Shown here: piece by piece, positions 2,969-24,206 of the stretch
Layout: the number at the start of each line of letters is the position of its first letter
Position numbering within the stretch: position 1 is the stretch's first letter
Assembly: GCA_041654895.1 (NCBI GenBank)
Contig: JBAZCR010000002.1
Span: forward strand, 8,435-72,434
DNA: 64,000 bases
Source of the DNA: Candidatus Pacearchaeota archaeon
Lineage (GTDB): Archaea > Nanobdellota > Nanobdellia > Pacearchaeales > GW2011-AR1
Reading direction: 5' to 3'
Notes under the pieces: model-generated
The model's database searches: none
Told to the model about the DNA's origin: nothing
Seen by the model: the letters and a program-made list of their open reading frames with translations, nothing else
Program-made: the position numbers and the translations under genes

Positions 2969-2978
2969 TTAGATTAAA

Positions 2979-3194: not shown

Positions 3195-3197
3195 AAA

Positions 3198-3896: not shown

Positions 3897-3936
3897 TTTT
3901 AATAAAAGTTTATAAATATTAATTCTATTTAATTTT

Positions 3937-4386: not shown

Positions 4387-4388
4387 TT

Positions 4389-4643: not shown

Positions 4644-4667
4644 AATAATTTAATTAAAATAGACTAT

Positions 4668-6371: not shown

Positions 6372-6460
6372 GAAAAAATAAGTTGTCTTGTGTATTTAAA
6401 TTTTGTTTTGTTTTTAATCAGAAGATTTATAAAATAGAACTACTATTTATTAATGAAAAG

Positions 6461-7408
6461 ATGGCGAAAAAGACTAAGGTTTCTGGTAACAAAAAGAAGG
6501 TAACAAAAAAAGTTTCTAAACCAAGTAAAATTTCTAATAGTAAATCTACTAAAAAAAAGGAAACAAAATCTAATTCTAATGTAAAATTATCACCTAAACA
6601 ACCTGTTGTTAATCAGACATTATTAATAGCAAATGAAAGAGATGCTGCAATGGATTTTGCTACAAAAGTTTACAAAGAATTTGATAATATGATTAAATCA
6701 ATTGTTCTTTTTGGTTCTTCTGCTAAAATGGATTTAAGAGATAAATCAGATATAGATATTATTATTTTGTTAGATGATGTTTCAATTAACTTTGATGAAG
6801 AGCTTATTTCTTGGTATAGAAAAAGGTTATCTATATTACTTAGTCAGAATAAATATGAGAGACCTTTACATATTAATACAGTTAGATTATCTACATGGTG
6901 GAGTGATTTGATTAAAGGAGATCCTGTTGTTTTAAATGTATTAAGATATGGAGAGGCTTTGATTGATTTTGGTGGTTATTTTAATCCTTTGAGAATATTA
7001 TTAAAAGAAGGTAAGATAAAATCTACTCCAGAATCTATTTATACATTACTTCAGAGAGCTCCAATGCATTTGGCTAGAGCAAATAGTGCTATGCTTTCTG
7101 TTGTCGACGGTGTTTATTGGAGTATGGTTGATTCTGCTCAGGCTGTTTTAATTGCAGCTAATATTATTCCTGCTTCACCAGAAAGTATTCCAGAGATTTT
7201 AAATCAACATTTTGTAACAAATAAGCTATTAGACAAAAAATATGTCCGTTATTATGAGACTATTTATGATTTGTCAAAAGAAATTGTTTATGGAAAGAAG
7301 ACAATAATTGAAGGTAAATATTTGGACGATTTATTTAAAATTGCAAATGATTTTTTGAGAGAAATGTCTAAATTAGTTGGGGATATAGTTAGGCAGGGTA
7401 AAAATTAG
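6461..7408 (+). CDS. Nucleotidyltransferase-fold protein (KNTase/MNT-like) with Lys-rich N-terminal tail and helical C-terminal half
   Basis: LFGSSAKMDLRDKSDIDIIILLDD matches the GS-x(n)-DxD minimal NTase motif. The first ATG is at 6461 (MAKKTKVSG). The track start at 6383 is a TTG abutting the thrS start. Confidence 0.6.
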   Translation: MAKKTKVSGNKKKVTKKVSKPSKISNSKSTKKKETKSNSNVKLSPKQPVVNQTLLIANERDAAMDFATKVYKEFDNMIKSIVLFGSSAKMDLRDKSDIDIIILLDDVSINFDEELISWYRKRLSILLSQNKYERPLHINTVRLSTWWSDLIKGDPVVLNVLRYGEALIDFGGYFNPLRILLKEGKIKSTPESIYTLLQRAPMHLARANSAMLSVVDGVYWSMVDSAQAVLIAANIIPASPESIPEILNQHFVTNKLLDKKYVRYYETIYDLSKEIVYGKKTIIEGKYLDDLFKIANDFLREMSKLVGDIVRQGKN

Positions 7409-7449
7409 TTTTAAGAAAAGATTAAATATTTAATTTTATTGTATTATTC

Positions 7450-8271
7450 ATGGCTAAGAAAAAGAAAGAGAATTATTTATTGAAGATATTTTCTTTTTTA
7501 GGTAAATGTATTTTCTTTTTGGTTAAAATTCCTTATTATATTGTAAAAAGTGTTTTATATTTAATTGATTTTTTTTCTTCAAAGGTTAAAAAAAGTAAGA
7601 TAAAAAACAAAAGAAAAAAAATCAATGCTAATTATGAAGATTTTAAATTATTGAAATTAAATAGTGGGAACTATGATGATTGGTTAAAGCAGGTTTTTAA
7701 TTCAGATAGTAAGATTGGGATTATTCTTGGTGCAAGAGGTTCTGGAAAAACAGCTTTTGGAGTTCGGCTTTTAGAAAATATTTATTTTAAGAAGAAAAAA
7801 GAATGTTTTGCTATGGGCTTTAATGAAAAGGATTTGCCTTCTTGGATTTATTCAATAGATGAAATTGACGAAGTTAAAAATAATTCTTTAGTTTTAATTG
7901 ACGAGGGAGGAATTTTATTTAATTCAAGGAGTTCAATGAAGAGTTCAAATAAATTATTAAGTGAATTAATTTTGATATCAAGACATAAAAATATTAGTAT
8001 TATATTTATTTCTCAGAATTCTTCTAATTTGGATGTTAATATTTTAAGACAAGCTGATTTTTTGATACTAAAACAATCTGCATTATTACAAAAAGATTTT
8101 GAGCGAAAAATTGTTCAGAAGATTTATCAAGAAAATGAAGATGATTTTAAAAAATTTAAAAATAAAAAAGGTTTAGCACTAATTTATTCAGATCAATTCA
8201 AAGGTTTTGTAGAAGGTAGTTTGCCTAGTTTTTGGAAAGAGAGTATTAGTAAGAGTTGGTCTAAGAATTAA
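7450..8271 (+). CDS. Membrane-anchored P-loop NTPase (Zot/HerA-FtsK-like, tentative)
   Basis: Walker A GARGSGKT, Walker B LVLIDEGG, and SRHKNISIIFISQNSS reminiscent of Zot/HerA-type ATPases. N-terminal hydrophobic segment (IFSFLGKCIFFLVKIPYYIV). Confidence 0.5.
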   Translation: MAKKKKENYLLKIFSFLGKCIFFLVKIPYYIVKSVLYLIDFFSSKVKKSKIKNKRKKINANYEDFKLLKLNSGNYDDWLKQVFNSDSKIGIILGARGSGKTAFGVRLLENIYFKKKKECFAMGFNEKDLPSWIYSIDEIDEVKNNSLVLIDEGGILFNSRSSMKSSNKLLSELILISRHKNISIIFISQNSSNLDVNILRQADFLILKQSALLQKDFERKIVQKIYQENEDDFKKFKNKKGLALIYSDQFKGFVEGSLPSFWKESISKSWSKN

Positions 8272-8324: not shown

Positions 8325-8840
8325 ATGGGATTATTATATATTAAAAGATTTAATGCACTTGACATAGCTAGAAGTGTAGAAGCATTATTGTCTGAAGCTA
8401 AAAAAGAATTATTAATTGATGTTCAACCAGTATTAATTCCTAAAAATTATAATCCGGATATTGTTTTTATTGATTCTTTATCAAGTATTTCCAGTGCTTT
8501 TTCAGGAGAAGGATCAAGATTTAGAATATATATGGAACAATTATTTAGATATTTAGAATCACATAAAATTACTTCTTTTTTGATTAGAGAAGTTTCAAAC
8601 CCAACACACATTGGTGGAACATTTGTAGAAGAGGGATCTGCAGTTTCTTTTCTAAGTGATGGTATTATTGTACTTTACAATGTGTTCTATAAAGTAGGAT
8701 ATAGAAAAAGAGCAATAGAAGTACTAAAAATGAGAGGTTCAAATATTAATAGAAAAATTGTAGAATTTGATATACAAAAGAAAAAAGGACTAATAATATA
8801 CCCAAACAAAATGCTGAAAGGAAATTATGTACTAACATAA
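8325..8840 (+). pseudogene. RecA-superfamily (KaiC/RadB-like) ATPase lacking the Walker A region; probably truncated
   Basis: The C-terminal KaiC-like signature is present (IVFIDSLSSI Walker B-like; AIEVLKMRGSNINRKIVEFDIQKKKGLIIY). The frame opens only at 8283, after a TAA, so the P-loop part is missing. Confidence 0.45.
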
Positions 8841-8845
8841 AAAAA

Positions 8846-10237
8846 TTAATCAAAAATATTCTTTAAAATATTATTCCTTTTTTCTTCAGCAATACAACTT
8901 TGACAAATTTTACTATTATTCTCACTAAAACCAAAGAATTTCTCTTGTGTTAATCTATGACATTTACTACAGGCTCTTAAACAATTAAAACAAAAGTCTT
9001 CACTACTAATAAAATCTTTTCTGATATGATCATTACAAACAAAATTACCACATCCAGAACACTTTTGAATGCAATCTTTACAGAATTCTCTCCCACAAAT
9101 ATAACATTTTTTAGTTATACATCTTTCACAAATAATTTTATTACAAGAATGGCATTTTTTGATACAATTTTTACAAATTAAATGTCCTCCTGAACATAAA
9201 GTAATGTTATTTAAAGAAGAGTTACACGAATCACACCTTAAGCCTTCAAAATCTTTTGTTAAGGGATTAAAGGAAACTTGAACATTTTTCTTTATAGTTT
9301 CGTTATCTAAAAAAAGATTAAAAATAAAAATTGGATAATAAATAATTGTGGTGTTTAGTAATTTATTACTTAAATTTAAACTAAACTTTTGTTGAGCATC
9401 TTTAATGCTGAAGTTTTTTTCTTTTATGATTTTATCTTTAGATTCATTATTAGAAATTTTAATTAAATCACTTTTTAACTTGGAGATTTTAGATATCAAA
9501 ACTTCTTTTTTCTCACCTTCACTTAACCTTGCTTTTAATTCCAAATCTTTAACTTTTTCAATAGAGTTATTTAGTTCATTACTATATTCATTTAATCTCG
9601 TATTATAATATTTATTTATTCTCTCAATTTCCTTATTTAATTCTGAAGATAATTTTAAGCTTAAATCATCTTTCTTATCTTTAATTAAATTAGATAAAGA
9701 TGACTTTGCAATTTCATAATCTTTTTTTAAATTCTTAGGATTAATCTCATCTAAATTTCCTTCAATCACATTATATCCACTTAAATCACCGTCAACAACA
9801 ACTCCTTCATGAACATAGATTTCATTTATTAATTGTTCTTTCTCATTTAGAAAACAAAAAGTTGTTAAAAAACTAAATCTTGAGAAGAAATTATTTTTAT
9901 TTTTCTTAATTATATTATTAATTTTACAATTATTAAGAGACAAATACTTTTTTATTTCAACAATAGGATCAACATTAAAATCAATTTTTAATAAAGTTGT
10001 CTTTCCAACGCTGTCTAAATATTTTTCTATATATCTTAATAAACTTGAATGTTTATCTATAAAATCACAATTCTCTTTTTTTTCAATAAAACTAATTCTC
10101 AAGGGGTTTTCCTTAAAAAGTAAATCTAAAAAAGATTTTGGAATATTTTCAATAGTATAGATTTCACCTTCACAATTAATTTTACAATTTAATTTAGTAA
10201 AAAAACTAAGAACAAATTCTTTTATTTCATCAACCAT
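8846..10237 (-). CDS. Hypothetical protein: N-terminal globular domain, central coiled coil, C-terminal array of CxxC zinc-ribbon-like motifs
   Basis: The C-terminal ~130 aa carry at least 10 CxxC pairs (CDSCN...CKNCIKKCHSCNKIICERCITKKCYICGREFCKDCIQKCSGCGNFVC...CFNCLRACSKCH...CQSC). The middle is heptad-like and K/E/L/S-rich. Confidence 0.6.
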   Translation of the reverse strand: MVDEIKEFVLSFFTKLNCKINCEGEIYTIENIPKSFLDLLFKENPLRISFIEKKENCDFIDKHSSLLRYIEKYLDSVGKTTLLKIDFNVDPIVEIKKYLSLNNCKINNIIKKNKNNFFSRFSFLTTFCFLNEKEQLINEIYVHEGVVVDGDLSGYNVIEGNLDEINPKNLKKDYEIAKSSLSNLIKDKKDDLSLKLSSELNKEIERINKYYNTRLNEYSNELNNSIEKVKDLELKARLSEGEKKEVLISKISKLKSDLIKISNNESKDKIIKEKNFSIKDAQQKFSLNLSNKLLNTTIIYYPIFIFNLFLDNETIKKNVQVSFNPLTKDFEGLRCDSCNSSLNNITLCSGGHLICKNCIKKCHSCNKIICERCITKKCYICGREFCKDCIQKCSGCGNFVCNDHIRKDFISSEDFCFNCLRACSKCHRLTQEKFFGFSENNSKICQSCIAEEKRNNILKNIFD

Positions 10238-10279
10238 CTTAGAAAAAATAAAACTTTGTTTTTAACTATTATGATTGGG
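10229..10279 (-). repeat. 51-bp promoter/start element, copy 1 (identical to 21964..22014)
   Basis: ATCAACCATCTTAGAAAAAATAAAACTTTGTTTTTAACTATTATGATTGGG is identical at both loci by direct comparison. On the minus strand it supplies an AT-rich TATA-like stretch plus ATG GTT GAT (MVD). Confidence 0.9.
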
Positions 10280-10288
10280 AGATTGATG

Positions 10289-10316
10289 GTAGACAGTTTA
10301 CGGTTTACTGTTCACA
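10289..10316. repeat. Heptad array A (GTAGACA GTTTACG GTTTACT GTTCACA)
   Basis: Four phased 7-mers of form GTnnACn sit in the 96-bp gap between the LamG-1 stop and the 51-bp element. The block is GC-richer than the surrounding DNA. Confidence 0.8.
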
Positions 10317-10333
10317 AGAGTCATTTGATTCTT

Positions 10334-12439
10334 TTACCATCGTCCTTTTTCATATAAAAGCTTAACTTCTTCGTTAGATAATTCTCTATTCCAGATTTTT
10401 ATATTGGATAATTGTCCATTTAAATAATACTGACTAGATGTTGAGTCTCTACCTATGTATAGCAAACTTGGACCAATACTATCTAAAGGTACATTCTCGA
10501 TAGTGGTTGTGTCCATTAATGTACCATCAATATATAATTTCATCCCCGTACCCGATTTTCTTGTTATTGTTATGTGTTTTAGCTCGTTAAGAGGCATAAT
10601 ATAAGAAGTTGTCCATCTGTATACACCCGCATGTTTTCCATAATCGATAGCAACTTTTTGTCCATATATAAAAACAAAAAGACTTGGATCTCCTCCACCC
10701 GTAGTAATCCTTTTAGTTAAAAATGCTGTTGCTGTTGGGCTATATGATAATACTCTTGTATAAAATGATATGGTTCCATCATCTAATGTATTTATTATTT
10801 GATTATCGCTTGTTATATAATCATTTACTCCGTCAAACACTGCCCCCTCATTTGTTATATTCACACCATTCATTAAAGTCCCATCATTTCCATACGGCGT
10901 CCTATCCGAAACTATCGTGCTTGACTTCATCCATTTTGTCGTCAATGGCATATCCAATATTAATCCTTTGTTTAAATTTCCTACACTTGCTTCTTTTGGT
11001 TTGTAAGAATCAAAAAGTAATTTTATTTCGTCTTCTGAAAGAGCTCGATTGTAAATACGAACATCGGAGATTGAGCCATCAGAATAATAAGTATTCCCAC
11101 CACCAATCACAAGATTATTCGTAACAGTTGTTGGATTTTTACAATTTGTATTTTCTTTTGTATCTTTTACACCATCAATATAAATATTCGCCTTTTGTAA
11201 TTCCTGATTATAAACGCCAACTATGTGATACCAAGTATTTGTAGATAATATTGTTTGGCTATCTAATTCTATACTGTTTGAAAAGGTACCTTTAAAACGA
11301 ACTTTATTCCCGTAGGTTGACAATACATAATTATTGCTAAACCATGAGCCGCTTGTACCTTTTGAAACAAATGTTGAATATGAGCCAAAAGAGTTCATCT
11401 TTACCCATACTGAAATGGTAAAACTACCAGTAAGCCCATTTACATTGCCATAATTTATATAATCATTACTTCCATCAAAACTTGTCGCTCCGTTGCTTTT
11501 GCCTTTTCTATCCTCAACTCCACCGATTGTAATCCCTCCTTGTGCTATTCCGTGATTTCCATAAGGAGTTAGGTCTTTTGCACCGTTTTCTGCATCTAGC
11601 ATCCAGTGTCCGACTAGCCCTTTGTTTAAATCAGATGTTGAAGCTATTGGCTTGTAAGAATTAAAAAGTAATTTTATTTCGTCTTCACTAAGAGCTCGAT
11701 TGTAAATACGGACGTCGGAAATTGAACCTTTAAAAGCTATTTTTCTATCAGGTCTTAAATCTCCTATTGAAATATAATTTTGAGATATTGTATTACCCGC
11801 AATAAAGCTTTTATCTAAAACTCCATTTATGTAAATTTTTGATTCTCCTCCCTTAGTTGCTGATACCACTAAATTAACCCATACTCCAACAGAAAGATTA
11901 TCATAATTAGATTCTTCAAATGAACTAGTAGACGGAGAATAAGTATAAACTCTGAATTTAGTTCCTCTTACTAAAAACCAAATAGGATATGTTTTAGATG
12001 GAGAAGATGCGATAATGGTCCTACCATAATCCTCTATGATATCTAAACTGCTTGGTTTTAACCATACTGAAACAGTATAATCATCCCCATAAGTTAAATC
12101 TGCAGAAATAACATCATCTACTCCATCAAAATTTGTCGCTCCGCCACTTTTGCCTTTTCTATCTTCTGCTCCGCCAATTGTAACTCCGCCTTGTCCTGTT
12201 CCGTGGTTTCCATATGGAGTTAAATCTTTTGCGCCGTTTTCAGCATCCAACATCCAGTGTCCGACTAAACCTTTCTCTAATGAGGATACTTTTGTTGTAT
12301 TTATCCCAAAAAATCCTGTTGCTATGGTTACAGCGACAAAAGAAATTAATAAGATAGAAATAATTATCAATACTATGAGGTGTTTATGGTTTACTGTATA
12401 CTGTTTACTGCCAACCGTTAACCCTTTACCTCCCCCCAT
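10334..12439 (-). CDS. Membrane-anchored surface protein with multiple LamG/concanavalin-A-like lectin domains (LamG-1)
   Basis: Repeated modules run from FDG(V/S)(D/N)DYI, through a (V/A)W(V/L/I)K strand, to SISDVRIYNRALSEDEIKLLF. N-terminal signal anchor LIVLIIISILLISFVAVTIATGFF. The first ATG is at 12439; the track start at 12457 is a TTG. Confidence 0.7.
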   Translation of the reverse strand: MGGGKGLTVGSKQYTVNHKHLIVLIIISILLISFVAVTIATGFFGINTTKVSSLEKGLVGHWMLDAENGAKDLTPYGNHGTGQGGVTIGGAEDRKGKSGGATNFDGVDDVISADLTYGDDYTVSVWLKPSSLDIIEDYGRTIIASSPSKTYPIWFLVRGTKFRVYTYSPSTSSFEESNYDNLSVGVWVNLVVSATKGGESKIYINGVLDKSFIAGNTISQNYISIGDLRPDRKIAFKGSISDVRIYNRALSEDEIKLLFNSYKPIASTSDLNKGLVGHWMLDAENGAKDLTPYGNHGIAQGGITIGGVEDRKGKSNGATSFDGSNDYINYGNVNGLTGSFTISVWVKMNSFGSYSTFVSKGTSGSWFSNNYVLSTYGNKVRFKGTFSNSIELDSQTILSTNTWYHIVGVYNQELQKANIYIDGVKDTKENTNCKNPTTVTNNLVIGGGNTYYSDGSISDVRIYNRALSEDEIKLLFDSYKPKEASVGNLNKGLILDMPLTTKWMKSSTIVSDRTPYGNDGTLMNGVNITNEGAVFDGVNDYITSDNQIINTLDDGTISFYTRVLSYSPTATAFLTKRITTGGGDPSLFVFIYGQKVAIDYGKHAGVYRWTTSYIMPLNELKHITITRKSGTGMKLYIDGTLMDTTTIENVPLDSIGPSLLYIGRDSTSSQYYLNGQLSNIKIWNRELSNEEVKLLYEKGRW
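12382..12430. repeat. Heptad array B (7 phased units) inside the first ~20 codons of LamG-1
   Basis: GTTTATG GTTTACT GTATACT GTTTACT GCCAACC GTTAACC CTTTACC. Confidence 0.8.
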
Positions 12440-12463
12440 CTCTGCATAATAATGCAAAGGTGC

Positions 12464-12471
12464 TATTTAAA
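12464..12471. promoter_or_regulatory. TATA-like element in the 47-bp divergent gap between LamG-1 and wHTH-1
   Basis: TATTTAAA lies 24 nt from the LamG-1 ATG (12439), a spacing that fits a leaderless transcript. It is the only TATA-like element in the gap. Confidence 0.35.
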
Positions 12472-12486
12472 GTTTTCAGTATAATT

Positions 12487-12708
12487 ATGCATATGTACAG
12501 AAAGTCCTTTCCAGAAATATTAATTCAAATAAATGACCTTCTAAAAAAGGAAAAAGAACTTTCTATAAATCAAATTGCCCTAAAACTTAAATCGCAATGG
12601 CGAACAGCTGAAAAATCTCTTGAAGTTTTAAAAAAATTAGGAATTGTTTCTGAAAAACCAAACAAAGAATCAAATAGGCAAGAAAGGATTTTTTATAGAC
12701 TAAAATAA
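12487..12708 (+). CDS. Small winged-helix DNA-binding protein (wHTH-1), divergent from LamG-1
   Basis: ELSINQIALKLKSQWRTAEKSLEVLKKLGIVSE...RIFYRL has an HTH + wing pattern. ATGs occur at 12487 and 12493; the track start at 12460 is a GTG. Confidence 0.5.
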   Translation: MHMYRKSFPEILIQINDLLKKEKELSINQIALKLKSQWRTAEKSLEVLKKLGIVSEKPNKESNRQERIFYRLK

Positions 12709-12715
12709 ATTATTT

Positions 12716-14089
12716 CTAATCCTTATTAATTGGAGTGGATTCATTTTCAGCGAAGAAAAATACTTTTTTAGATTCTTCAATACATGCAGTTTCATTAAAA
12801 TCAAATGAAATTTTAGCAGGAGGTAGTGAGAACTTACCTACAAATCCTACTCTTGAATAAACAATATAACTAAACATTCTTTCTTCTCCGCTATTTAAAT
12901 CTCCAATATCCCATTTTAATATTCTTTTTTCAATATCTACAAAATCAGGAGCATTAGATTTAAAATTATTATAGATTTTAACATTTAGTGGAACTCTATC
13001 AATTAAAACACCTTTTTCAATATCTTTTCTTGCTTTAACACTTAAATTAACCCTTAATGCAAACTCACCATTTTTTGTTTTAACAGATCTAACTGTCTTT
13101 TTAATATCAACTTTCTTCTCTAAATATTTCTTAACCATTAAACAAATAAAAATAATTAAACAAACAAAAATCAATGGATAAAAATAATTTGTCTTAATTT
13201 TAATATTATAAACATCTCCAGGATTTAACCTAAAAGACCATTCATAAACAAATAAAGAACCTTTTTTTTCTATTTTATTTGGCTCTTTATTAAAACTAGT
13301 AAATAATCCAGAAAACCAATTTTTCTCTTCAACTACTCTTATATCTTCAACAGTATTTCCAGAATTAATTTTATTTATGTTCTTTGTTTTAATTAAAAAT
13401 CCGCTCTTTTCATCTTGTGTAATTATTCCTTTTTTTTCACTTAAATATAGTTTTCCTTGAACTTCTTTTAGACCTGCTTCACTATCAAAAAAACAATCAA
13501 TTGAATAAACACCTGCCTTTGTTGTTTTAATTAATTCTTCACTAACATCTAATTCTATCTCTTTAATTTCATGTGCACTTAAATTAAAATCAGATTCAAA
13601 GTTAGATAAAATAGAATTACATTTCATATTTAAATTTTTAAAATTATAATTTTCCTTATTCTCAACATAAATTTTAACAATAGGTTCTTCAAAATCAATA
13701 AAATTTGATTCTATATTAATAACATCTTCAAAGTCAAAAATTCTTATTTTACCTAAAAATTTCTTTTGCTCTACGTCTTTATGATTAATATAATAATTAA
13801 ATAAATAATCTCCTCTTGTTTTAATTCTATCAAAAGGTGTAAATGTATAATTTAAAAGAACATTTTTATCTGTTAAATAATAAAAGTCACTAGGTTCAAT
13901 TAAAATATCAGATAAAGTATATACATTATAATAACCATATTCTAAATCACTTAAAGAAACAACAACATCAATATCACTTTCAAAACCAATAATATAAACA
14001 TCATTCTTAAAATCTGTCTCAACTAAGAATGCACTATTCAGACTTAAAAAAAATATTAGCAAAGTTAGTGATAAAAACAATCTTTTCAT
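12716..14089 (-). CDS. Hypothetical secreted/membrane-anchored protein
   Basis: Signal peptide MKRLFLSLTLLIFFLSLNSA and one TM helix (YPLIFVCLIIFICLMV). The C-terminal beta-rich segment has a W-x-IGDLNSGEE motif reminiscent of DUF11/CARDB-type folds. Confidence 0.5.
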   Translation of the reverse strand: MKRLFLSLTLLIFFLSLNSAFLVETDFKNDVYIIGFESDIDVVVSLSDLEYGYYNVYTLSDILIEPSDFYYLTDKNVLLNYTFTPFDRIKTRGDYLFNYYINHKDVEQKKFLGKIRIFDFEDVINIESNFIDFEEPIVKIYVENKENYNFKNLNMKCNSILSNFESDFNLSAHEIKEIELDVSEELIKTTKAGVYSIDCFFDSEAGLKEVQGKLYLSEKKGIITQDEKSGFLIKTKNINKINSGNTVEDIRVVEEKNWFSGLFTSFNKEPNKIEKKGSLFVYEWSFRLNPGDVYNIKIKTNYFYPLIFVCLIIFICLMVKKYLEKKVDIKKTVRSVKTKNGEFALRVNLSVKARKDIEKGVLIDRVPLNVKIYNNFKSNAPDFVDIEKRILKWDIGDLNSGEERMFSYIVYSRVGFVGKFSLPPAKISFDFNETACIEESKKVFFFAENESTPINKD

Positions 14090-14169
14090 ATAAGAAATAA
14101 TTATAAAAATTTTATAAAGATTGTTATAGTTAAATATTCATTAATCATCCTAACAGTTCAGTCATAACA

Positions 14170-14177
14170 TTTAAATA
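14170..14177 (+). promoter_or_regulatory. TATA box of ppsA
   Basis: TTTAAATA lies 24 nt upstream of ATG 14202, which suggests a leaderless or short-leader transcript. Confidence 0.4.
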
Positions 14178-14201
14178 TTCTGTAAAATATAAAATATAAA
14201 G

Positions 14202-16481
14202 ATGGGTGATACATACATAAAATGGCTTTCTGAGTTAAATAAAGAAGATATTAAACTCGCTGGGGGAAAAGGTGCCAATTTAGGTGAAATTTACAATTCA
14301 AAATTTCCTGTGCCATCTGCTTTTGTTATAACAACTGACGCCTTTTATTATTTTCTTAAAAAAACAAATTTAGAAGATTCTATAAAACAAATTCTTTCAA
14401 AAATTGACGTAGATGAAACATATAAATTACAAGAAAAAGCAAAAGAAATAAGGCAATTAATTATTGAAACAAAAATGCCAGAAGACCTAGAAAAGATAAT
14501 ATTAGAAGCATATGACCATTTCAATATTAGTTTAGATGATATAAGAGATTCTCCTGGCGCACTTGCAATATTAAGGTCAGCAAGAGAACCTGTCTTTGTT
14601 TCTGTAAGATCTTCAGCAACAGCAGAGGATTTAGGTGATGCAAGTTTTGCCGGTCAACAAGATTCTTTTATTAATGTTAAAGGAAATGATGAAGTTATTG
14701 AAAAAGTAAAAGCAGTTTTTGCATCTATTTTCACAGCTCGTTCAATATACTACAGAAAAAAGAAAGGCTTTGAAAGTTTAGTTGGAATTGCTGCTGTTGT
14801 TCAAAAAATGATTAATTCAGATAAATCTGGTGTAATGTTTTCAAAGCATCCTGTAAATGGAAAAGACGAAATATTAATTGAATCTGTTTGGGGACAAGGT
14901 GAAGGAATTGTATCTGGAAAAATAAAACCTGACCAACATATCGTAAATTTAGATTTAGAAATCACAGAAGAAAGAATCTCTGATAAAAAACTAGCAATTA
15001 TAAGAACTGCCTCAGGTCAAACAAAAACAATTGAGTTAACCAAAGAAAAGTCAAACCAAAAAGTTCTAAAAACTTATGAAATAAAACAATTATCTGAATA
15101 TGCTTTAAAATTAGAAGAATTATATCAATTCCCTCAAGATATAGAATTTGCAATAGAAGATGATGATATTTATATTTTACAAACAAGGCCTATAACCACA
15201 TTAAAGAACAAAAAAGAAGTGCAAGATATTGATGGTCAAATATTAACACAAGGTTTAGCTGCCTCTCCAGGTGTTGCATCGGGTATTGTGAAAATTGTTA
15301 ATTCTATGGATGACTTAGATAAGATAAAACAAGGAGATATTTTAGTAACAACAATGACAAATCCTGATATGGTTGTAACAATGCAAAAAGCAGCAGCAAT
15401 AGTAACTTCAGAAGGAGGAGTAACTGCTCATGCTGCAATTGTTTCAAGAGAAATGGGAATTCCTGCAGTTGTTGGAACACAAAATGCACTTGATGTTTTA
15501 GACGATGGAATGGAAATAACTGTAGATGGTTTTAATGGAAAAGTTTTTTCAGGTATAGCAGAAAATAGAAGTGTAGAAATAGAACCAATTGTTGAAACCA
15601 AAACCAAAATAAAAGTTATGGTAGATTTACCTCAATTTGCTAAAAGAGCAGCAAAAACAAAAGCATATGGCATTGGTTTAGTTAGATTAGAAGGATTAAT
15701 TTCTATTTCACAAAAACACCCTTTGGCTTATGAAAAAGAAGGAAATTTAAATGATTATAAAGAAATGTTAAAGCAAGGTTTAAAACAAATAGCAGAAGAA
15801 TTTATCTCAAAACCAATTTGGGTAAGAACAAGTGATATTAGAAGTGATGAATATTCTAATTTAGAAGGTGCACCAAAAGAAATAGAAAGAAATCCAATGT
15901 TAGGCTTTCATGGAATTAGGTTTTCATTAAAGCATCAGGAAATTTTTAAGTCAGAAATTCTTGCAGTAAAAGAGTTAGTAGAGTTAGGACATAATTTTGG
16001 TATAATGATACCCCAAGTTATTTCAGTTGATGAAGTAAAACAAACAAAAAAGATAATGGAAGAATTAGGTTGTCTTGGAAAAATAAAATTTGGTGTCATG
16101 GTTGAAACACCGGCAGCTAGTATTATTATAAAAGATATATGCAAAGAAGGAATAGATTTTATCTCTTTTGGTACTAATGATTTAACACAATATACTTTAG
16201 CAATTGACAGAGGAAACGAAGATGTGCAATATATTTATGACGAATTAAATTGGGCAATATTAAAACAAATAAGTAGAGTAATTCGAGAATGTAAAAAAAA
16301 TAATATTGAAACATCAATTTGTGGGCAAGCAGGTTCAAATAAAGAAATGGTAAAATTCTTAGTAAGAAATGGAATAGATTCAATATCTGTAAATGCCGAT
16401 GCTGCAAAAGAAATTTCTGAATATGTAAGGCAATTAGAAGAGGAACAAGAAAAAGAAACTTCTAATGATATTTTTGATTAA
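14202..16481 (+). CDS. ppsA: Phosphoenolpyruvate synthase (pyruvate, water dikinase)
   Basis: N-terminal ATP-grasp (LAGGKGANLGE), phosphohistidine swivel domain (TSEGGVTAHAAIVSREMGIPAVVG), C-terminal PEP-utilising domain (FISFGTNDLTQYTLAIDR). Confidence 0.93.
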   Translation: MGDTYIKWLSELNKEDIKLAGGKGANLGEIYNSKFPVPSAFVITTDAFYYFLKKTNLEDSIKQILSKIDVDETYKLQEKAKEIRQLIIETKMPEDLEKIILEAYDHFNISLDDIRDSPGALAILRSAREPVFVSVRSSATAEDLGDASFAGQQDSFINVKGNDEVIEKVKAVFASIFTARSIYYRKKKGFESLVGIAAVVQKMINSDKSGVMFSKHPVNGKDEILIESVWGQGEGIVSGKIKPDQHIVNLDLEITEERISDKKLAIIRTASGQTKTIELTKEKSNQKVLKTYEIKQLSEYALKLEELYQFPQDIEFAIEDDDIYILQTRPITTLKNKKEVQDIDGQILTQGLAASPGVASGIVKIVNSMDDLDKIKQGDILVTTMTNPDMVVTMQKAAAIVTSEGGVTAHAAIVSREMGIPAVVGTQNALDVLDDGMEITVDGFNGKVFSGIAENRSVEIEPIVETKTKIKVMVDLPQFAKRAAKTKAYGIGLVRLEGLISISQKHPLAYEKEGNLNDYKEMLKQGLKQIAEEFISKPIWVRTSDIRSDEYSNLEGAPKEIERNPMLGFHGIRFSLKHQEIFKSEILAVKELVELGHNFGIMIPQVISVDEVKQTKKIMEELGCLGKIKFGVMVETPAASIIIKDICKEGIDFISFGTNDLTQYTLAIDRGNEDVQYIYDELNWAILKQISRVIRECKKNNIETSICGQAGSNKEMVKFLVRNGIDSISVNADAAKEISEYVRQLEEEQEKETSNDIFD

Positions 16482-16548
16482 TTTTTATTAGTGTTTATCT
16501 ATTTTTTATCACAATTATTTTTAAAAAGAAGTTTTCATTTTGCAGAAA

Positions 16549-17217
16549 ATGGACAAATATCATATTGGAACACGACTTGCTGGTTATCCAAGAAACTACA
16601 TTAAAGATTTAGCTCTTTTTCTGGATGAAAAGTCTGGCAAACGTTTTTCTGAAAGAATTGTTCCACACTTAACTTTTATTCCTCCATTTATTATAGATAA
16701 TGAAGAAGAAGTAATTAATATTTTTAATTCAACACTCTCTAAGTTTAATAAAGATTTAACAACTTACAAAATTAATGGGTTTGGCTTTTTTACAAAACCT
16801 GAACCAGTTTTTTATGCAAATATTGAAAAAAACGAAAAAATAAATAAAATGATAAAATCGCTTGAAAATAATCTTGAAAATAAAATTACTTATCTTTCAG
16901 AGAAAATATCTGATATCGGCGAAACAAATAAGTATTTACATGTAACTGTTTCAAAAGATTTTAACCCAGAAGAATTCAACAATATAATTAGTTCAATTGA
17001 CGAATATACTAACAAATACAAATTTAGAGAAATGGAACATCCTTTATTTAGAATTTATCTTTTAAAAAATAAATATATCTTGCGAGAGCATAGTTTTGCC
17101 TTAGAAGAAAGTCTATATCAACCAAAAGCAAAAAGGCCATTTATATTTGAAGAAGATAAAGAAATATTTTCTAGAAAATCAGGATTAAAACTTTCATCTG
17201 ACGGAATGGTTAATTAA
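16549..17217 (+). CDS. 2H phosphoesterase superfamily protein (LigT/cyclic phosphodiesterase-like)
   Basis: Two HxT/Sx motifs at the expected spacing (HLTF at the N-terminal lobe, HVTV at the C-terminal lobe). The first ATG is at 16549. Confidence 0.55.
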   Translation: MDKYHIGTRLAGYPRNYIKDLALFLDEKSGKRFSERIVPHLTFIPPFIIDNEEEVINIFNSTLSKFNKDLTTYKINGFGFFTKPEPVFYANIEKNEKINKMIKSLENNLENKITYLSEKISDIGETNKYLHVTVSKDFNPEEFNNIISSIDEYTNKYKFREMEHPLFRIYLLKNKYILREHSFALEESLYQPKAKRPFIFEEDKEIFSRKSGLKLSSDGMVN

Positions 17218-17241
17218 CTTTACATATTGCGTTAGTCATTT

Positions 17242-17290
17242 GTTTATTGTTTACCGTTGACTGTCGACAGTTCACGGTTTACTGTTTACC
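17242..17290. repeat. Heptad array C (7 perfectly phased units) abutting the LamG-2 stop codon
   Basis: GTTTATT GTTTACC GTTGACT GTCGACA GTTCACG GTTTACT GTTTACC. It contains the palindrome ACTGTCGACAGT, and the last unit overlaps the stop codon at 17286-17288. Confidence 0.85.
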
Positions 17291-19787
17291 ATCGTCCTTT
17301 TTCATATAAAAGTTTGACTTCTTCGTCGGACAAAGCACGATTATAGACTTTGATGTTAGAAATAGAACCATTAATATGTTCTTGAATACTAGAATATCCT
17401 ATGTTAATATTACTTGTTGTTGATCTAATAGGTCCACCACTTGAAGATTTTGAATTATCAAAATTACCATCTACGTAAACTTTACCAATAACTCCATTAT
17501 AAGTGGCAACTACATGACGCCATTCATTATTGTTTAAAGTATTTAAACTTTGAAGATGACTAAGTAAGTCCCATGTGGTTGCTGAATTTTGAGATAAACT
17601 GAAGTCCAATTTATTACTATATAATTCAAAGCAATAAGATCTCCCATTCCATGTTTTTAATAATATAACTCTATAACCACTTCCAAAATTATTACTTTTT
17701 ATCCATGCTGAAATTGTTAATTCATTAGCCAAATTTAAAGAATCACTATTAGATATGTTCATTCCCCCATTCACTCCATCAAACACTGCCCCTTCATTCG
17801 TTACATTTACACCATTCCTTAAAGTCCCATCATTTCCATACGGCGTCCTATCTGAAACAATCGTATTTGATTTCATATATTTTGTCGTCAATGGCATATC
17901 CAATATTAATCCTTTGTTTAAATTTCCTACACTTGCTTCTTTTGGTTTGTAAGAATCAAAAAGTAATTTTATTTCATCTTCAGATAATGCACGGTTGTAA
18001 ATACGGACGTCGGAGATTGAACCGCTAAAAAACTGCCAACCACTTGTACCACTAAATCGCAAATTATAACCAGTGTTACCAATTAAAAAATCCCCATAAC
18101 TAGTTTTTGAATTAGAAAAATCTAAATAACAAGACATAATCCCTCTATTAAATATACAAACCAAATGATGCCAATTATTATCTTGGGGATATGATAGAAC
18201 TACATTATGTCTAGTACCACTTGATTCATATGTATCAAAATAAATTGTTTTAGTATCAGCGTAACTTATAGCCCATCCATAATTTCCAGGAGATGATAAA
18301 CCTGCTCCTTTACGAACTACTTCATGATGGTTATTTAAATCATTAATTTTAAACCAAACAGATACAGAAAATATATCCTTCATTTGTAAAATATTAGGAT
18401 TGCCGCAATCAATATAATCATCAACCCCATCAAAATTTGTCGCTCCGTCGCTTTTTCCTTTTCTGTCTTCTACTCCACCTATCGTAATTCCGCCTTGTGC
18501 TGTTCCATGGTTTCCATATGGAGTTAAATCTTTTGCACCGTTTTCTGTATCTAGCATCCAATGCCCAACCAAACCCTTATTTAAATCAGATATTGAAGCT
18601 GTTGGCTTGTAAGATTCATAAAGTAATTTTATTTCGTCTTCACTAAGAGCTCGATTGTAAATACGAACATCGGAAATTGAGCCTTTTAAAAATTCTGCAT
18701 CATAACGACTTCCAATTCTTAAATAATTTGGATCATAAGATATTTCACCCGTTGTGTCAAAAACACTGTCTAAAATACCATTTACATAAATTTCTATTTT
18801 ATTATTAGGAGATATGATAAAAATAAGATTATACCACTCATTAAGATTTAATGTAGTTTGACCCATCCAACTTTTCCATGTCCCACCAGTTGTAGCGAAG
18901 ATATATGGTTTCATATTACTGCCAATAACAGAACCAAATTGTCTAGTAGAAGTTCTACCAACAGAATTTTGTAATAAGGCTTGCCAATTACCAGTTGCAG
19001 AGTCTAATTTAATCCATAAACTTTGGGTGAATTCAGAAGACATATCTAATTTTCCATCATGAAAAATTTCTATATAATCATCAACCCCATCAAAACTATA
19101 TGCTCTGTTTGGCTCTCCTTTTACTCCTGTTGTTAGGGTTGCCCCGTAGTTTGTTCCGTGATTTGAATATGGAGTTATGTCTTGAATATCAATTTCTGAA
19201 ATATAAATAGAATTTATAATCATATCAATATCTACACTACCGACATTGTCTATTAACAATTTTTTATTAGCTGTAGAATAAATATAAAAGGAGTGTTTTC
19301 CGGTCTGTTTTAATAAGTAGCCGCCTTGGTTTTGAGGACCTGCTATAGCACTACCATAATTAACTATACAATCTATTGTAACCTTATAATACTTATTTGC
19401 AGAAAGATATGCGGAACTAGATATAATGTATGAATCCACACCGACTCCTTTTAAGTTTGGCTTGCCAGAAGTCCAGTCAGTATTTACAGATGCCCAACCA
19501 GAGGAGCTACCAAAAGTGGTATTTAGAACTAAGTTTTTTACTGCTTCGCTTTCTCCGTCTAATGGGTAGTGTGCTACTAAACCTTTCTCTAATGAAGATA
19601 CTTTTGTTGTATTTATCCCAAAAAATCCAGTTGCTATGGTTACAGCGACAAAAGAAATTAATAAGACAGAAATAATTATTAATACTATGAGGTGTTTACG
19701 GTTTACGGTCAAATTGTCTGTTAACTGTTTACTGTCAACAGTAGACCGCTTACGGATCCAATATATTTTTTTAGAATTTATTTCCAT
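17286..19787 (-). CDS. Membrane-anchored surface protein with multiple LamG/concanavalin-A-like lectin domains (LamG-2)
   Basis: Same anchor as LamG-1 (LIVLIIISVLLISFVAVTIATGFF) and four modules ending in SISDVRIYNRALSEDEIKLL(Y/F). Long stretches are about 85-95% identical in DNA to LamG-1. Confidence 0.7.
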   Translation of the reverse strand: MEINSKKIYWIRKRSTVDSKQLTDNLTVNRKHLIVLIIISVLLISFVAVTIATGFFGINTTKVSSLEKGLVAHYPLDGESEAVKNLVLNTTFGSSSGWASVNTDWTSGKPNLKGVGVDSYIISSSAYLSANKYYKVTIDCIVNYGSAIAGPQNQGGYLLKQTGKHSFYIYSTANKKLLIDNVGSVDIDMIINSIYISEIDIQDITPYSNHGTNYGATLTTGVKGEPNRAYSFDGVDDYIEIFHDGKLDMSSEFTQSLWIKLDSATGNWQALLQNSVGRTSTRQFGSVIGSNMKPYIFATTGGTWKSWMGQTTLNLNEWYNLIFIISPNNKIEIYVNGILDSVFDTTGEISYDPNYLRIGSRYDAEFLKGSISDVRIYNRALSEDEIKLLYESYKPTASISDLNKGLVGHWMLDTENGAKDLTPYGNHGTAQGGITIGGVEDRKGKSDGATNFDGVDDYIDCGNPNILQMKDIFSVSVWFKINDLNNHHEVVRKGAGLSSPGNYGWAISYADTKTIYFDTYESSGTRHNVVLSYPQDNNWHHLVCIFNRGIMSCYLDFSNSKTSYGDFLIGNTGYNLRFSGTSGWQFFSGSISDVRIYNRALSEDEIKLLFDSYKPKEASVGNLNKGLILDMPLTTKYMKSNTIVSDRTPYGNDGTLRNGVNVTNEGAVFDGVNGGMNISNSDSLNLANELTISAWIKSNNFGSGYRVILLKTWNGRSYCFELYSNKLDFSLSQNSATTWDLLSHLQSLNTLNNNEWRHVVATYNGVIGKVYVDGNFDNSKSSSGGPIRSTTSNINIGYSSIQEHINGSISNIKVYNRALSDEEVKLLYEKGRW
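19694..19754. repeat. Heptad array D (3 + 5 units with a 5-nt phase break) inside the first ~30 codons of LamG-2
   Basis: GTTTACG GTTTACG GTCAAAT tgtct GTTAACT GTTTACT GTCAACA GTAGACC GCTTACG. It contains TACTGT-CA-ACAGTA. Confidence 0.8.
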
Positions 19788-19804
19788 TTATCAACTGTAT
19801 CACT

Positions 19805-19820
19805 ACACTATAATTAGTGT
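19805..19820. promoter_or_regulatory. Inverted repeat ACACTA-TAAT-TAGTGT in the LamG-2/wHTH-2 divergent promoter region
   Basis: Perfect 6-bp arms with a 4-bp spacer, in the 69-bp gap between the two start codons. Confidence 0.3.
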
Positions 19821-19856
19821 GATTATTTAATATATAAACCTTACCAAATTTGGTGT

Positions 19857-20126
19857 ATGAATAAAGATATCGGAATAAAAAATAAAAAGCTTTATAACAA
19901 AATAAGACAACTCTCTAACCCAAGTAAATTTAAAATTATTGAAGCAACTCAAGACAGTGAAATCAATGTTACAAATCTATCTAAGATTTCTAAATTAGCT
20001 TTTAATAAATGCTCAAATTATTGTTCTGAATTAGAAAAACAAAATCTTGTCATTAAAAACAAAGTAGGAATCAACAGTTTTGTTAAATCTAAAATATCAT
20101 TAGAATCACTTTCCAGATCTTTTTAA
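19857..20126 (+). CDS. Small ArsR-like winged-helix protein (wHTH-2), divergent from LamG-2
   Basis: LSNPSKFKIIEATQDSEINVTNLSKISKLAFNKCSNYCSELEKQNLVIKNKVG follows the ArsR/SmtB-type pattern. Confidence 0.5.
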   Translation: MNKDIGIKNKKLYNKIRQLSNPSKFKIIEATQDSEINVTNLSKISKLAFNKCSNYCSELEKQNLVIKNKVGINSFVKSKISLESLSRSF

Positions 20127-20175
20127 AGTATATATTATTTATTTCTCAGAGGCTCAATTATAGAAATTTTAAAAT

Positions 20176-21972
20176 TTAGGAAACAGATTCATCTAGGAAA
20201 TCGCTAGTTGCTTTTTTGCTATCTTCATAATTTTTCATTCCTTCTTCAATTATGCTAGCAATTTTATTAATATCTTTACTGAAAAGATCTAAGTTTCCTT
20301 TTGAATCTATAAATGCACTCATTATTTTCTCTTCAATTTTATTTCTTCCAAAAGTTCTTCCTTCAGAATCAAGACCTAAATTAAATAAAATAATCGGCAA
20401 CTCTCCAATAACTAAACCAACACAGCACATTTTATTAATAATTAAATCTACAACACTTTCTTCCATAGTTCCTTTTGTTGCAAAAGAATAAACATAAATA
20501 TCTCTTTTTTGACCAATCCTATCTAATCTACCTATTCTCTGCTCAACACTCATTGGATTCCAAGGCAAATCATAATTAATTAAATTCCTACAAAATTGAA
20601 AATTCAAACCTTCAGCACCAGTATCAGTGGAAATTAAAATATCTACATTTTGATTCTTAAATTGGTTGATTCTTTCTGATTTTTCTTCTCTACTTAAACC
20701 GCCTATAAATTCAATAATTTTCAAATTAAATGGTTTTAACCTTTCCACAATATATTTTAGTGTAGTTGGGTGTCTAGTATAAATTAAAATTTTCTCGTCG
20801 TTACTTTTACTTCTAATCTCTTTAACGACTTCAAGAAGTTTTTCTATTTTACTATCTTGCTTTAAATTTTCATAATCATTGAGAATTTCTTGAGCTAAAT
20901 TTTTTGTGTTCTGATGATACTTATCACTATTAACAATACCTTGAAGAGTTTCCATTGCAGATTTAGAAGAACTAGTAATTTTAGGTAGTAGTGAATAAAT
21001 CACAAGTCTTCCATTAATTTCATTTCCATCAAATCTAAAATAATTTTCTTTTAATAATGAAACAATATTCTCATAAATTATTTTTTCCTCTTTTGTTAAA
21101 TCAACACTGATAATTTTAGGAATTCGTTTTTTGTATTCTATTCCAGTTTCATCTCTTCTTCTTCGAATCATAACTTCATCTAATCTCTTTTTTAATTCAG
21201 TTGGATTTAATGGATATCTTTTATTTCCTTTATGTAAAAATTTAGACCTAAACTCTTTGATTGTGCCTAAATGACCTCTTTTTAATAAATTCAAGAGATT
21301 ATATAACTCAAGTAAATCATTTTGAAAGGGTGTTGCAGTCAGTAATAAAAACCTCTTTTTTTGTAATTTGTCTACAAACCTCCATCTAACAGTATTTTTC
21401 TCTTTTAATTTATGAGCTTCGTCTACAATAACTAAATCCCAACTAAAATCATGAGCTTTTTTATGTCTAAATTCTCTTAAGTTTTTATTATAAATTTTAA
21501 CCCTGTCAATTGAAGCAATAACAAAATTATATTTGTCCCAATCATTAGAAGATTCGATAATATTAAAATTCAAATTAAATTTCTCTTTTAATTCTTCAAC
21601 CCATTGATTTACTAAACTTGGTGGAGTTAAAATTAAACATTTTTTAAAAAAGCCTCTTATAATTCCTTCTTTTAATACAAAACCAGTTGTAATTGTTTTA
21701 CCTAAACCCACTTCGTCAGCCAATAAACCTGTTGAATTTAAATCTTTAATCAAATGTAGTGCTCCTTCCTTTTGATGAGGCAAATCATACATTAAATTTT
21801 TCTTAACTAAATCATAACTTAATAAATTATCAACAAAATTATCTATTTTTATTTCTTCAGAGTATTTTTTTAATTCTAAAATTTCAGGACTATCAAATGA
21901 AGGAAGTGAATCAATATTTTCAAATAAAGAAAAATCTTCTTCAAAATCCTCATTAATTATTAAATCAACCAT
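20176..21972 (-). CDS. SNF2-family helicase/ATPase (COG0553, RapA/HepA-like)
   Basis: Motif I ADEVGLGKT, motif II VIVDEAHKLK, LLLTATPFQN, helicase-C with QRIGRLDRIGQ. Confidence 0.88.
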   Translation of the reverse strand: MVDLIINEDFEEDFSLFENIDSLPSFDSPEILELKKYSEEIKIDNFVDNLLSYDLVKKNLMYDLPHQKEGALHLIKDLNSTGLLADEVGLGKTITTGFVLKEGIIRGFFKKCLILTPPSLVNQWVEELKEKFNLNFNIIESSNDWDKYNFVIASIDRVKIYNKNLREFRHKKAHDFSWDLVIVDEAHKLKEKNTVRWRFVDKLQKKRFLLLTATPFQNDLLELYNLLNLLKRGHLGTIKEFRSKFLHKGNKRYPLNPTELKKRLDEVMIRRRRDETGIEYKKRIPKIISVDLTKEEKIIYENIVSLLKENYFRFDGNEINGRLVIYSLLPKITSSSKSAMETLQGIVNSDKYHQNTKNLAQEILNDYENLKQDSKIEKLLEVVKEIRSKSNDEKILIYTRHPTTLKYIVERLKPFNLKIIEFIGGLSREEKSERINQFKNQNVDILISTDTGAEGLNFQFCRNLINYDLPWNPMSVEQRIGRLDRIGQKRDIYVYSFATKGTMEESVVDLIINKMCCVGLVIGELPIILFNLGLDSEGRTFGRNKIEEKIMSAFIDSKGNLDLFSKDINKIASIIEEGMKNYEDSKKATSDFLDESVS

Positions 21973-22014
21973 CTTAGAAAAAATAAAACTTTGTTTTTAA
22001 CTATTATGATTGGG
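21964..22014 (-). repeat. 51-bp promoter/start element, copy 2 (identical to 10229..10279)
   Basis: Exact match over 51 bp including the ATG GTT GAT of the SNF2 gene. Identity collapses to about 60% immediately beyond it. Confidence 0.9.
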
Positions 22015-22016
22015 CA

Positions 22017-22051
22017 GTTGACGGTGGGTGTTTGACTGTCGGCAGTTCACC
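22017..22051. repeat. Heptad array E (GTTGACG GTGGGTG TTTGACT GTCGGCA GTTCACC) upstream of the SNF2 gene
   Basis: Five phased units in the same orientation and at the same position relative to the 51-bp element as array A, but with no LamG gene attached. Confidence 0.75.
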
Positions 22052-22146
22052 ACTAATCTTCCTAGAAAAAATAAATTTACATTAAAAAAATCTATGTTTA
22101 ACCCAGTAGTTAATTTTATAAATCCTAAAGTTGATTTAAACTAGCT

Positions 22147-24168: not shown

Positions 24169-24206
24169 CAAAAACTTTTAAATAAAATTAATGTCAAACA
24201 TTGTTT

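Follow-up and report, generated by a model that had tools for sequence, protein, structure and literature searches.

Degenerate GTNNAC heptad arrays at the ends of two LamG genes in an archaeal genome: a tentative reading as recombination joints

Five arrays of phased 7-bp units (heptads), here called A to E, occur in a 64-kb stretch of DNA (64,000 nucleotides of Candidatus Pacearchaeota contig JBAZCR010000002.1; hereafter the window), and four of them lie at the ends of two genes for laminin-G-domain (LamG) proteins that resemble surface adhesins. The array unit is a palindromic GTNNAC frame plus one free base, and the arrays are found where homology between the two LamG modules stops and where gene order departs from that of the closest relative. 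Our preferred reading, which we hold tentatively, is that the arrays are recombination joints at the ends of a portable LamG cassette; it is placed first among several explanations and still falls short of being probable. The window has a GC content of 27% and carries archaeal housekeeping genes (RNA polymerase subunits, elongation factors EF-1alpha and EF-2, aminoacyl-tRNA synthetases, NrdD and phosphoenolpyruvate [PEP] synthase), among them a threonyl-tRNA synthetase with an archaeal editing domain. Nearest relatives of the PEP synthase are metagenome-assembled genomes labelled Nanoarchaeota, Woesearchaeota or Pacearchaeota, which makes the host a DPANN archaeon of Nanoarchaeota/Woesearchaeota-like type. 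Its genome was detected in landfill, anaerobic-digester and wastewater metagenomes, and the locus was found in no RNA-seq run searched. The genome sequence covered was the window plus 10 kb upstream and ∼4 kb downstream (∼78 kb), and the comparison set was 1.33 Mb from 80 related genomes.

All five arrays claimed in an earlier note on this DNA are present at the places it gave and consist of phased heptads (units below are on the plus strand). Array A (10282–10316; five heptads: ATTGATG GTAGACA GTTTACG GTTTACT GTTCACA) lies 17 nt past the LamG-1 stop; its start had been put at 10289, which misses one degenerate first unit. Array B (12382–12430; seven heptads: GTTTATG GTTTACT GTATACT GTTTACT GCCAACC GTTAACC CTTTACC) covers codons 4 to 19 of LamG-1, in the cytoplasmic tail before the membrane helix. 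Array C (17242–17290; seven heptads in perfect phase: GTTTATT GTTTACC GTTGACT GTCGACA GTTCACG GTTTACT GTTTACC) lies between convergent genes and overlaps the LamG-2 stop codon, which falls in its last unit. Array D (19694–19754), in codons 12 to 32 of LamG-2, is made of two heptads (19694–19707) and five more (19720–19754) around a 12-nt insert that breaks the heptad phase and preserves the reading frame. Array E (22017–22051; five heptads: GTTGACG GTGGGTG TTTGACT GTCGGCA GTTCACC) has no LamG gene attached and is the most degenerate of the five. The heptads themselves thus stand as first described, while the claimed 4 to 8 units become five to seven and the claimed consensus GTTTACn becomes GTNNAC plus N.

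Phased runs of 4, 4, 5 and 7 units are found in the window, and none of at least four arose in 100 first-order Markov simulations, where 3-unit runs averaged 0.27 per strand. Tandem Repeats Finder (TRF) also returned period 7 at arrays A, B, C and D (array C: 7.0 copies, 73% matches). A position-weight scan of the window gave no sixth array above the null maximum, and no arrays were found in the 10 kb upstream and ∼4 kb downstream of it, in agreement with the impression gained earlier by eye; nor were GTNNAC arrays found in the 1.33 Mb from related genomes. Over 31 units, G1 is kept in 28, T2 in 29, A5 in 29 and C6 in 27, with positions 4 and 7 essentially free (chi-square P = 1 × 10−7). At least eight different hexamer cores occur across the five arrays with four of seven positions fixed; GTTTAC is the commonest form, in this strain only. 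Judged on sequence, the four kept positions would form a recognition pattern, unlike a decaying microsatellite, and the regular 7-bp spacing of a palindromic frame points to a dimeric protein that recognizes it. All arrays do share one orientation, as had been claimed, given by T at position 3 in 23 of 31 units, a polarity that is strain-specific. They are likewise GC-richer than their surroundings (37 to 57% versus 27%). Palindromes of the form ACTGT-N2-ACAGT, said to occur in several arrays, are perfect in C and D only. A hairpin or cruciform role for them was considered and rejected, as no array folds better than shuffled sequence (z of −1.5 to +0.2).

The frame GTNNAC is also the exact specificity of an archaeal N6-methyladenine methyltransferase, M.MjaIV (PMC11033074), so that the arrays could be clusters of restriction-modification or orphan methyltransferase targets, serving as densely methylated epigenetic marks or preferred break sites. 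In favor of this, 22 of the 81 GTNNAC sites of the window fall within the arrays, which make up 0.35% of the sequence, and the site is under-represented outside them (observed/expected 0.67, z = −3.6). That depletion is unspecific, however: GANNTC, GCNNGC, GGNNCC and TTNNAA are equally depleted, and specific avoidance of GTNNAC was rejected. The window holds no methyltransferase or nuclease gene, and the one-strand T bias at position 3 would be unneeded for a symmetric site. We regard this explanation as highly improbable.

LamG-1 (10334–12439, minus strand) encodes 701 aa from the ATG at 12439, with an N-terminal tail, one membrane helix and three Laminin_G_3 domains. This ATG is most likely the true start; a TATA-like TTTAAATA lies ∼27 nt upstream of it, and a public gene call has the same start. 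LamG-2 (17286–19787, minus strand; 833 aa) shares the architecture and is a mosaic relative to LamG-1, with 45% amino-acid identity overall and DNA tracts of 86 to 95% identity at both ends (5′ and 3′) and in the domain linkers. A protein search with the N-terminal 120 aa of LamG-2 found no homologue, exact-protein look-ups for LamG-2 and the SNF2 protein (see below) returned the same gene order only, and a metagenome scan with a 20-mer of the LamG 3′ end gave one chance match, in a phage-like contig. Within the genes, 25-nt stretches at 11016–11040, 11667–11691, 17962–17986 and 18622–18646 are 84 to 100% identical and encode a linker containing RIYNRALSEDEIKLL; they recur at LamG domain boundaries within and between both genes and might allow domains to be shuffled by homologous recombination.

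If LamG-1 starts at ATG 12439, arrays B and D lie inside the LamG 5′ coding ends, as proposed earlier, B beginning 6 nt and D ∼33 nt past the respective ATG. On the minus (LamG) strand the unit reads NGTAAAC, and in reading frame 3 the consensus would yield a TAA stop; the frame-3 units of B and D are instead GTTAAC, GTATAC or GTCTAC. TAA occurs in 8 of 10 frame-1 or frame-2 units versus 0 of 4 frame-3 units (P = 0.015), and since the frame-3 units are those altered away from TAA, the coding arrays would be translated and doubly constrained.

Similarity between the two LamG modules extends from the 3′ array to the 5′ array and no further. At the 5′ end, their DNA is 88 to 95% identical through the membrane-helix region and the first two heptads, and ∼75% identical across the rest of arrays B and D; beyond these identity is at random level, and the start codons, promoters and winged-helix (wHTH) genes are unrelated. 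Counting inward from the stop codon at the 3′ end, 38 of 40 nt are identical, and nothing matches beyond the adjoining outer arrays. A second duplicated block behaves similarly. The earlier note had pointed to an identical 51-bp element, and the two copies are exact (10229–10279 and 21964–22014, both on the minus strand). Copy 1 spans the beginning of a gene for a 463-aa protein (8846–10237, minus strand), from the putative core promoter through the start codon to the first codons, and ends at array A; copy 2 stands in the same relation to a gene for an SNF2-family helicase (20176–21972, minus strand) and ends at array E. Between the copies there are 0 differences in 51 nt, followed by 16 in the 37 nt that begin with the first base of each array (A and E; Fisher P = 9 × 10−8). 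Both arrays stop ∼43 nt before the ATG, immediately upstream of the putative TATA region. Of the four ends of the duplicated blocks, three are thus at arrays, and the fourth is at a 9-nt identity that is the first codons (MVD) of the 463-aa and SNF2 genes. In wastewater metagenomes, the 51-bp block (21957–22011) had 5 to 8 times the flanking depth, indicating more than two copies or contexts in those communities.

Comparison with the closest relative (locus L120, an 11-kb contig with 84 to 89% nucleotide identity) places the arrays at rearrangement junctions as well. The relative has the contiguous order PEP synthase, 456-aa gene, SNF2 gene and 463-aa gene, which is common to two or three further relatives. 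It lacks positions 10253–12725 of the window (array A, LamG-1, array B and wHTH-1) and 16490–20186 (RNA ligase, array C, LamG-2, array D and wHTH-2), together with the 51-bp block and any array, so that every array stands at a junction missing from the collinear locus. Since L120 has the contiguous order without the modules and the further relatives share that order, the LamG modules and arrays are insertions at rearrangement junctions, with the SNF2 gene moved. Relative to this locus (positions 2874–7514), the 457-aa, SNF2 and 463-aa genes of the window (8846–21972) are separated and in part relocated, and the whole block lies inverted with respect to its flanks; a 171-aa KaiC-like open reading frame (ORF; 8325–8840) is also missing from the relative. 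A protein search with the RNA ligase matched itself only, the cluster members being of the same strain.

Array E lies between the copied 51-bp block and a stretch (22055–22100) whose ortholog in the relative is the intergenic DNA separating the start of the 463-aa gene from the SNF2 stop; we take this stretch as a remnant of the ancestral 463-aa promoter stranded beyond the array. The 51-bp block shares only its first ∼20 nt with the relative's region before the 463-aa gene, so array E and 27 new bases have come to lie between the old promoter and the gene start. This arrangement fits a solo array, and it is plausible, as suggested earlier, that A represents an occupied and E an empty site.

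Each LamG gene is divergent from a gene for a small winged-helix protein on the plus strand, wHTH-1 (12487–12708) beside LamG-1 and wHTH-2 (19857–20126) beside LamG-2, and the two proteins have no detectable relationship in sequence. In a collection of 5.8 billion proteins, wHTH-1 had two homologues only (67% and 65% identity), both encoded divergently from a small membrane-protein gene at loci (L199 and L216) without arrays. A metagenome scan for wHTH-1 gave 484 pattern matches, none of them confirmed, and sequence searches of PADLOC and the PDB yielded nothing beyond generic wHTH and SNF2 matches. The LamG-1 promoter region can be aligned with the promoter of the small membrane-protein gene, and homology stops at the start codon and array B. 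Since the promoter region is orthologous in these array-less loci, LamG-1 was probably linked to an expression site already resident there, and the array would mark the point of linkage. A palindrome in the divergent promoter, TGCATAATAATGCA (12443–12456), is kept in one of the two homologous loci and, on this sequence evidence, is a likelier candidate for the wHTH-1 operator than the arrays are. The proposal that the arrays are iterons for wHTH-1 therefore finds no support, its homologues doing without arrays. Between the starts of LamG-2 and wHTH-2 lies an imperfect palindrome, ATCAC(TAC)ACTA-TAAT-TAGTGTGAT (19796–19822), a candidate wHTH-2 operator.

From the positions of the arrays and their constrained units we infer recombination at the arrays and a protein that recognizes them. 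In the scheme we tentatively rank first, the heptad arrays would form both ends of a cassette in direct orientation (3′ array, LamG ORF, 5′ array), and this cassette would have been joined in frame to two different resident sites, each with its own promoter, start codon and divergent small wHTH regulator. Blocks of DNA would be joined, duplicated, converted or deleted at the arrays, either by heptad microhomology, which offers many registers, or, more likely, by way of a protein binding GTNNAC sites side by side at 7-bp pitch. Array E would be a solo array that has stayed behind at a rearranged site or stands ready there. The earlier suggestion of recombination or gene-conversion boundaries gains support from the homology blocks, the 51-bp tract and the synteny breaks, all of which end at arrays, whereas no recombinase came to light in the window and no excision or alternative junction in the contig-level population data. 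Several observations weigh against recombination joints. The window encodes no recombinase, nuclease or obvious array binder (Pfam scans of ORFs of at least 100 aa; small intergenic ORFs of 35 to 110 aa were listed and judged by eye). The longest identical stretch between two arrays is ∼13 nt on a reading of the alignments, less than ordinary homologous recombination needs. Almost the whole N-terminal tail consists of array, and any in-frame fusion before the membrane helix necessarily falls inside the array; regulatory sites, too, would be expected to place arrays at gene boundaries. Contigs from every run were free of deletions, circles and alternative inter-array junctions, and heptad repeats at housekeeping genes of related DPANN genomes show no signs of cassettes.

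Recognition by a dimeric protein has a regulatory consequence that is about equally defensible. On the model of omega/ParB on its heptads or MetJ on tandem metboxes, a small dimeric protein might bind the GTNNAC heptads cooperatively as operators or silencers and control transcription, with the arrays traveling as the control region of the cassette; we consider this possible, if on the unlikely side. Such a protein could block LamG just past its leaderless start at arrays B and D, and act just upstream of the B recognition element and TATA box of the 463-aa and SNF2 genes at arrays A and E, a possibility to which we give similarly limited credence. The GTNNAC frame kept at a fixed 7-bp pitch with intervening bases free is what such binding would predict, and unit order and number turn over fast while the motif stays, as is typical of binding-site clusters. 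The positions also suit it, with A and E ∼43 nt upstream of an ATG, B 6 nt and D ∼33 nt past one. Moreover, omega/ParB of plasmid pSM19035, the closest case worked out so far, binds as one dimer per heptad, needs at least four contiguous heptads and accepts direct repeats as functional sites (PMC9499535), and the arrays here have five to seven contiguous units. On the other hand, array C lies between convergent gene ends and has no promoter to serve, the window has no ribbon-helix-helix or ParA gene, wHTH-1 homologues have their own conserved palindrome and no arrays, and the orthologous 463-aa and SNF2 promoters of L120 work without arrays. Operators by themselves also leave the block ends and synteny breaks at arrays unexplained. 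The recombination joint is ranked first because it is the only reading to explain why the cassette ends are in direct orientation, why blocks and synteny break off at arrays, how unrelated expression sites were taken over and why array E stands alone.

Variation among strains was followed in assembler contigs, from which rare variants are dropped by assembly. Contigs from three landfill or digester runs of different studies cross arrays B, C and D with 0 differences, and unchanged contigs cross array A in two of the three runs and array E in two to three. In wastewater, array E of a co-occurring strain is longer by 63 nt (exactly nine heptads), a variant of array D is longer by 45 nt, in frame, and an L120-like strain has SNF2 and 463-aa promoters without arrays. 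Depth in wastewater metagenomes is 5 to 10 times that of the flanks at the LamG 5′ and 3′ coding ends and drops at the arrays. Many differing GTNNAC arrays follow LamG ends there (e.g., GTCTACT GTATACC GTCTACC and GTCAACC GTCTACT GTTAACC GTCTACA); over 31 units of other strains, G1, A5 and C6 are kept in 30 each and T2 in 25, and position 3 is C, A or T. Differing arrays at so many LamG-family ends mean that arrays are a family-wide feature with fast turnover in which GTNNAC is kept. Variation in unit number, one of the checks named in the earlier note, was seen in array E, by nine units between strains, and not in the dominant strain, and a check of these contigs for excision circles or alternative junctions found none. 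A joint (17217|G|12393) that resembled a circle or an empty site is better explained as the array of a variant strain after its RNA ligase stop, matching array B units, and an apparent occupied E site proved to be the longer E array.

These data bear on a further idea of the earlier note, slipped-strand phase variation, in which LamG would be switched on or off by frameshifts, each due to one 7-nt unit gained or lost in array B or D. B and D do lie in the first 20 to 32 codons, 7 nt is not divisible by 3, array E shows that the number of units can change, and relatives have perfect heptads just past an ATG. However, neighboring units differ, which disfavors slippage, and contigs of the three runs are identical over B, C and D. 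The only length differences in coding arrays are 12 and 45 nt, both in frame, and frame-3 units have been changed from GTAAAC to GTTAAC, GTATAC or GTCTAC, keeping the frame open. The idea is not supported by these data, and we consider it most improbable.

Heptanucleotide repeats as such are neither new nor specific to LamG genes. They are reported to be the commonest kind of long simple sequence repeat (LSSR) in most prokaryotic genomes and have been ascribed to polymerase slippage (Mrazek 2007, as summarized in PMC4679880); intergenic TAACTGA repeats of Beggiatoaceae are heptanucleotide and unexplained (PMC4679880). Among GC-richer tandem repeats found by TRF in 80 related loci, period 7 was the commonest (25), ahead of period 6 (12) and periods 5, 8 and 9 (2 to 5), although these period-7 repeats were concentrated in few genomes. 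They are near-perfect copies of unrelated motifs (AGAACCA, AAGCGAC, CCTGAAA, CCCTACC and others), located directly upstream of TATA boxes (of PEP synthase and others), right after the ATG of glutamyl-tRNA synthetase, and in linkers or C-terminal extensions of housekeeping proteins (L121 16844–16876; L131 6714–6739 and 16200–16227; L127 9937–9969, 14505–14587 and 21437–21468; L123 12261–12431). The glutamyl-tRNA synthetase repeats stand at the same position in two genomes, with a different motif in each. The association with LamG holds in this genome and its strains, and does not extend to the heptanucleotide class in related DPANN genomes. What is particular here is that one degenerate array family has four positions under constraint and goes with the cassette ends of a single gene family.

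The arrays might on this background be functionless relics of slippage, tolerated where harmless (intergenic DNA, N-terminal tails and linkers) and copied along with duplicated segments. The prevalence of period 7 in relatives, the variety of motifs and sites there, the attribution of the class to slippage in the literature cited above and the whole-unit difference of array E between strains all favor such an origin. Neutral decay should strike all seven positions equally, whereas deviations concentrate at positions 3, 4 and 7 (more than 60 units in several strains); one GTNNAC frame runs throughout the lineage, against unrelated motifs in relatives; and the coincidence with block ends and synteny breaks is left unexplained. 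We consider relics unlikely.

Among the closest known systems are conserved repeats that bound surface-protein cassettes in variation systems: the 70-bp repeats upstream of trypanosome variant surface glycoprotein (VSG) genes, the 17-bp direct repeats flanking Borrelia vls cassettes, the Sma/Cla repeat of Neisseria pilin loci and the vrs sites of Mycoplasma pulmonis vsa genes, which lie in 5′ coding sequence. In these, as here, short repeats are placed at the 5′ coding end or within it and again just beyond the 3′ end, family homology ends there, and the expression site supplies promoter and start codon. Unlike them, the present locus has a degenerate heptad array, in an archaeon, with no silent archive, recombinase or switching seen; and in contrast to inversion switches such as vsa/vrs and shufflons, all arrays have one orientation, with no recombinase found in the window. 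Integrons offer gene-sized cassettes with sites in direct orientation and a resident promoter, and the 7-nt core of their attC sites is GTTRRRY. The units here end in AC rather than RRY, show no imperfect palindrome or fold and come with no integrase in the window, and sites are at both cassette ends, one of them inside coding sequence. For operators, the omega system of pSM19035 is alike in its contiguous 7-bp units, ∼4 to 10 per array, beside promoters (PMC9499535), compared with five to seven in phase here. It differs in its unit (WATCACW versus GTNNAC plus N) and setting (a Firmicute plasmid versus an archaeal chromosome), and two arrays here are in coding sequence and one is at a 3′ end, with no ribbon-helix-helix or ParA gene in the window. 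Heptanucleotide LSSR (Beggiatoaceae TAACTGA, the cyanobacterial short tandemly repeated repetitive [STRR] sequences, and those of Mrazek 2007) resemble the arrays as tandem 7-nt units of variable number, mostly at gene boundaries or shortly upstream of starts (PMC4679880), but are near-perfect copies of one heptamer, whereas units here differ, four positions are fixed and the arrays are at the ends of one gene family.

If the arrays are joints for the exchange of LamG genes, they would offer a first concrete handle on programmed surface variation in an archaeal episymbiont, with a motif that can be searched for, footprinted and traced in long reads. Attachment to host cells is how DPANN archaea live, and among the prime candidates for recognizing a host are their large LamG-type surface proteins. 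A fuller, array-guided cassette system, in which a GTNNAC-specific protein acts at both ends, LamG cassettes are joined in frame to expression sites, deletion leaves solo arrays and specificity of host attachment changes, would be an archaeal counterpart of the expression sites of bacterial and protozoan antigenic variation; at present we think it decidedly doubtful. Operator arrays would instead add a new archaeal recognition motif with omega-like architecture, and the conservative reading is of heptanucleotide repeats found lineage-wide at gene boundaries of reduced genomes, one family of which has four constrained positions.

Other repeats and genes met with in the course of this work are of separate interest. 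In one relative (L132, 4619–4830), a 67-bp unit, present three times, is made up of a GGCGGTGGG-type box, heptads of the CCTGAAA type and a mini-hairpin motif (GCGAAGC). It occurs once more (6810–6870) beside a TATA box upstream of a 645-aa gene, and the unit looks like a portable promoter-upstream module. A scan of viral contigs for four GTNNAC heptads gave, among the matches listed, simple heptamer microsatellites and a few mixed-orientation phage arrays, none of them linked to the LamG locus. In the latter (L049, L066, L080, L094 and L109; L074 and L083; L008), intergenic GT(A/T)(A/T)AC heptads of mixed orientation lie near gene starts (e.g., GTTAACA GTAAACA GTATACA GTTAACT GTATAC), and these may be operator arrays of an unknown repressor family. 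Within the window, a 40-aa ORF (2846–2968) that follows nrdD directly has the NRDD Pfam signature in public gene calls; the anaerobic ribonucleotide reductase seems to have its C-terminal end encoded by a separate ORF. Finally, the gene for a DUF285 protein (24201–25601) has internal tandem repeats of ∼72 nt, which appear as a ladder of offset BLAST matches to the relative.

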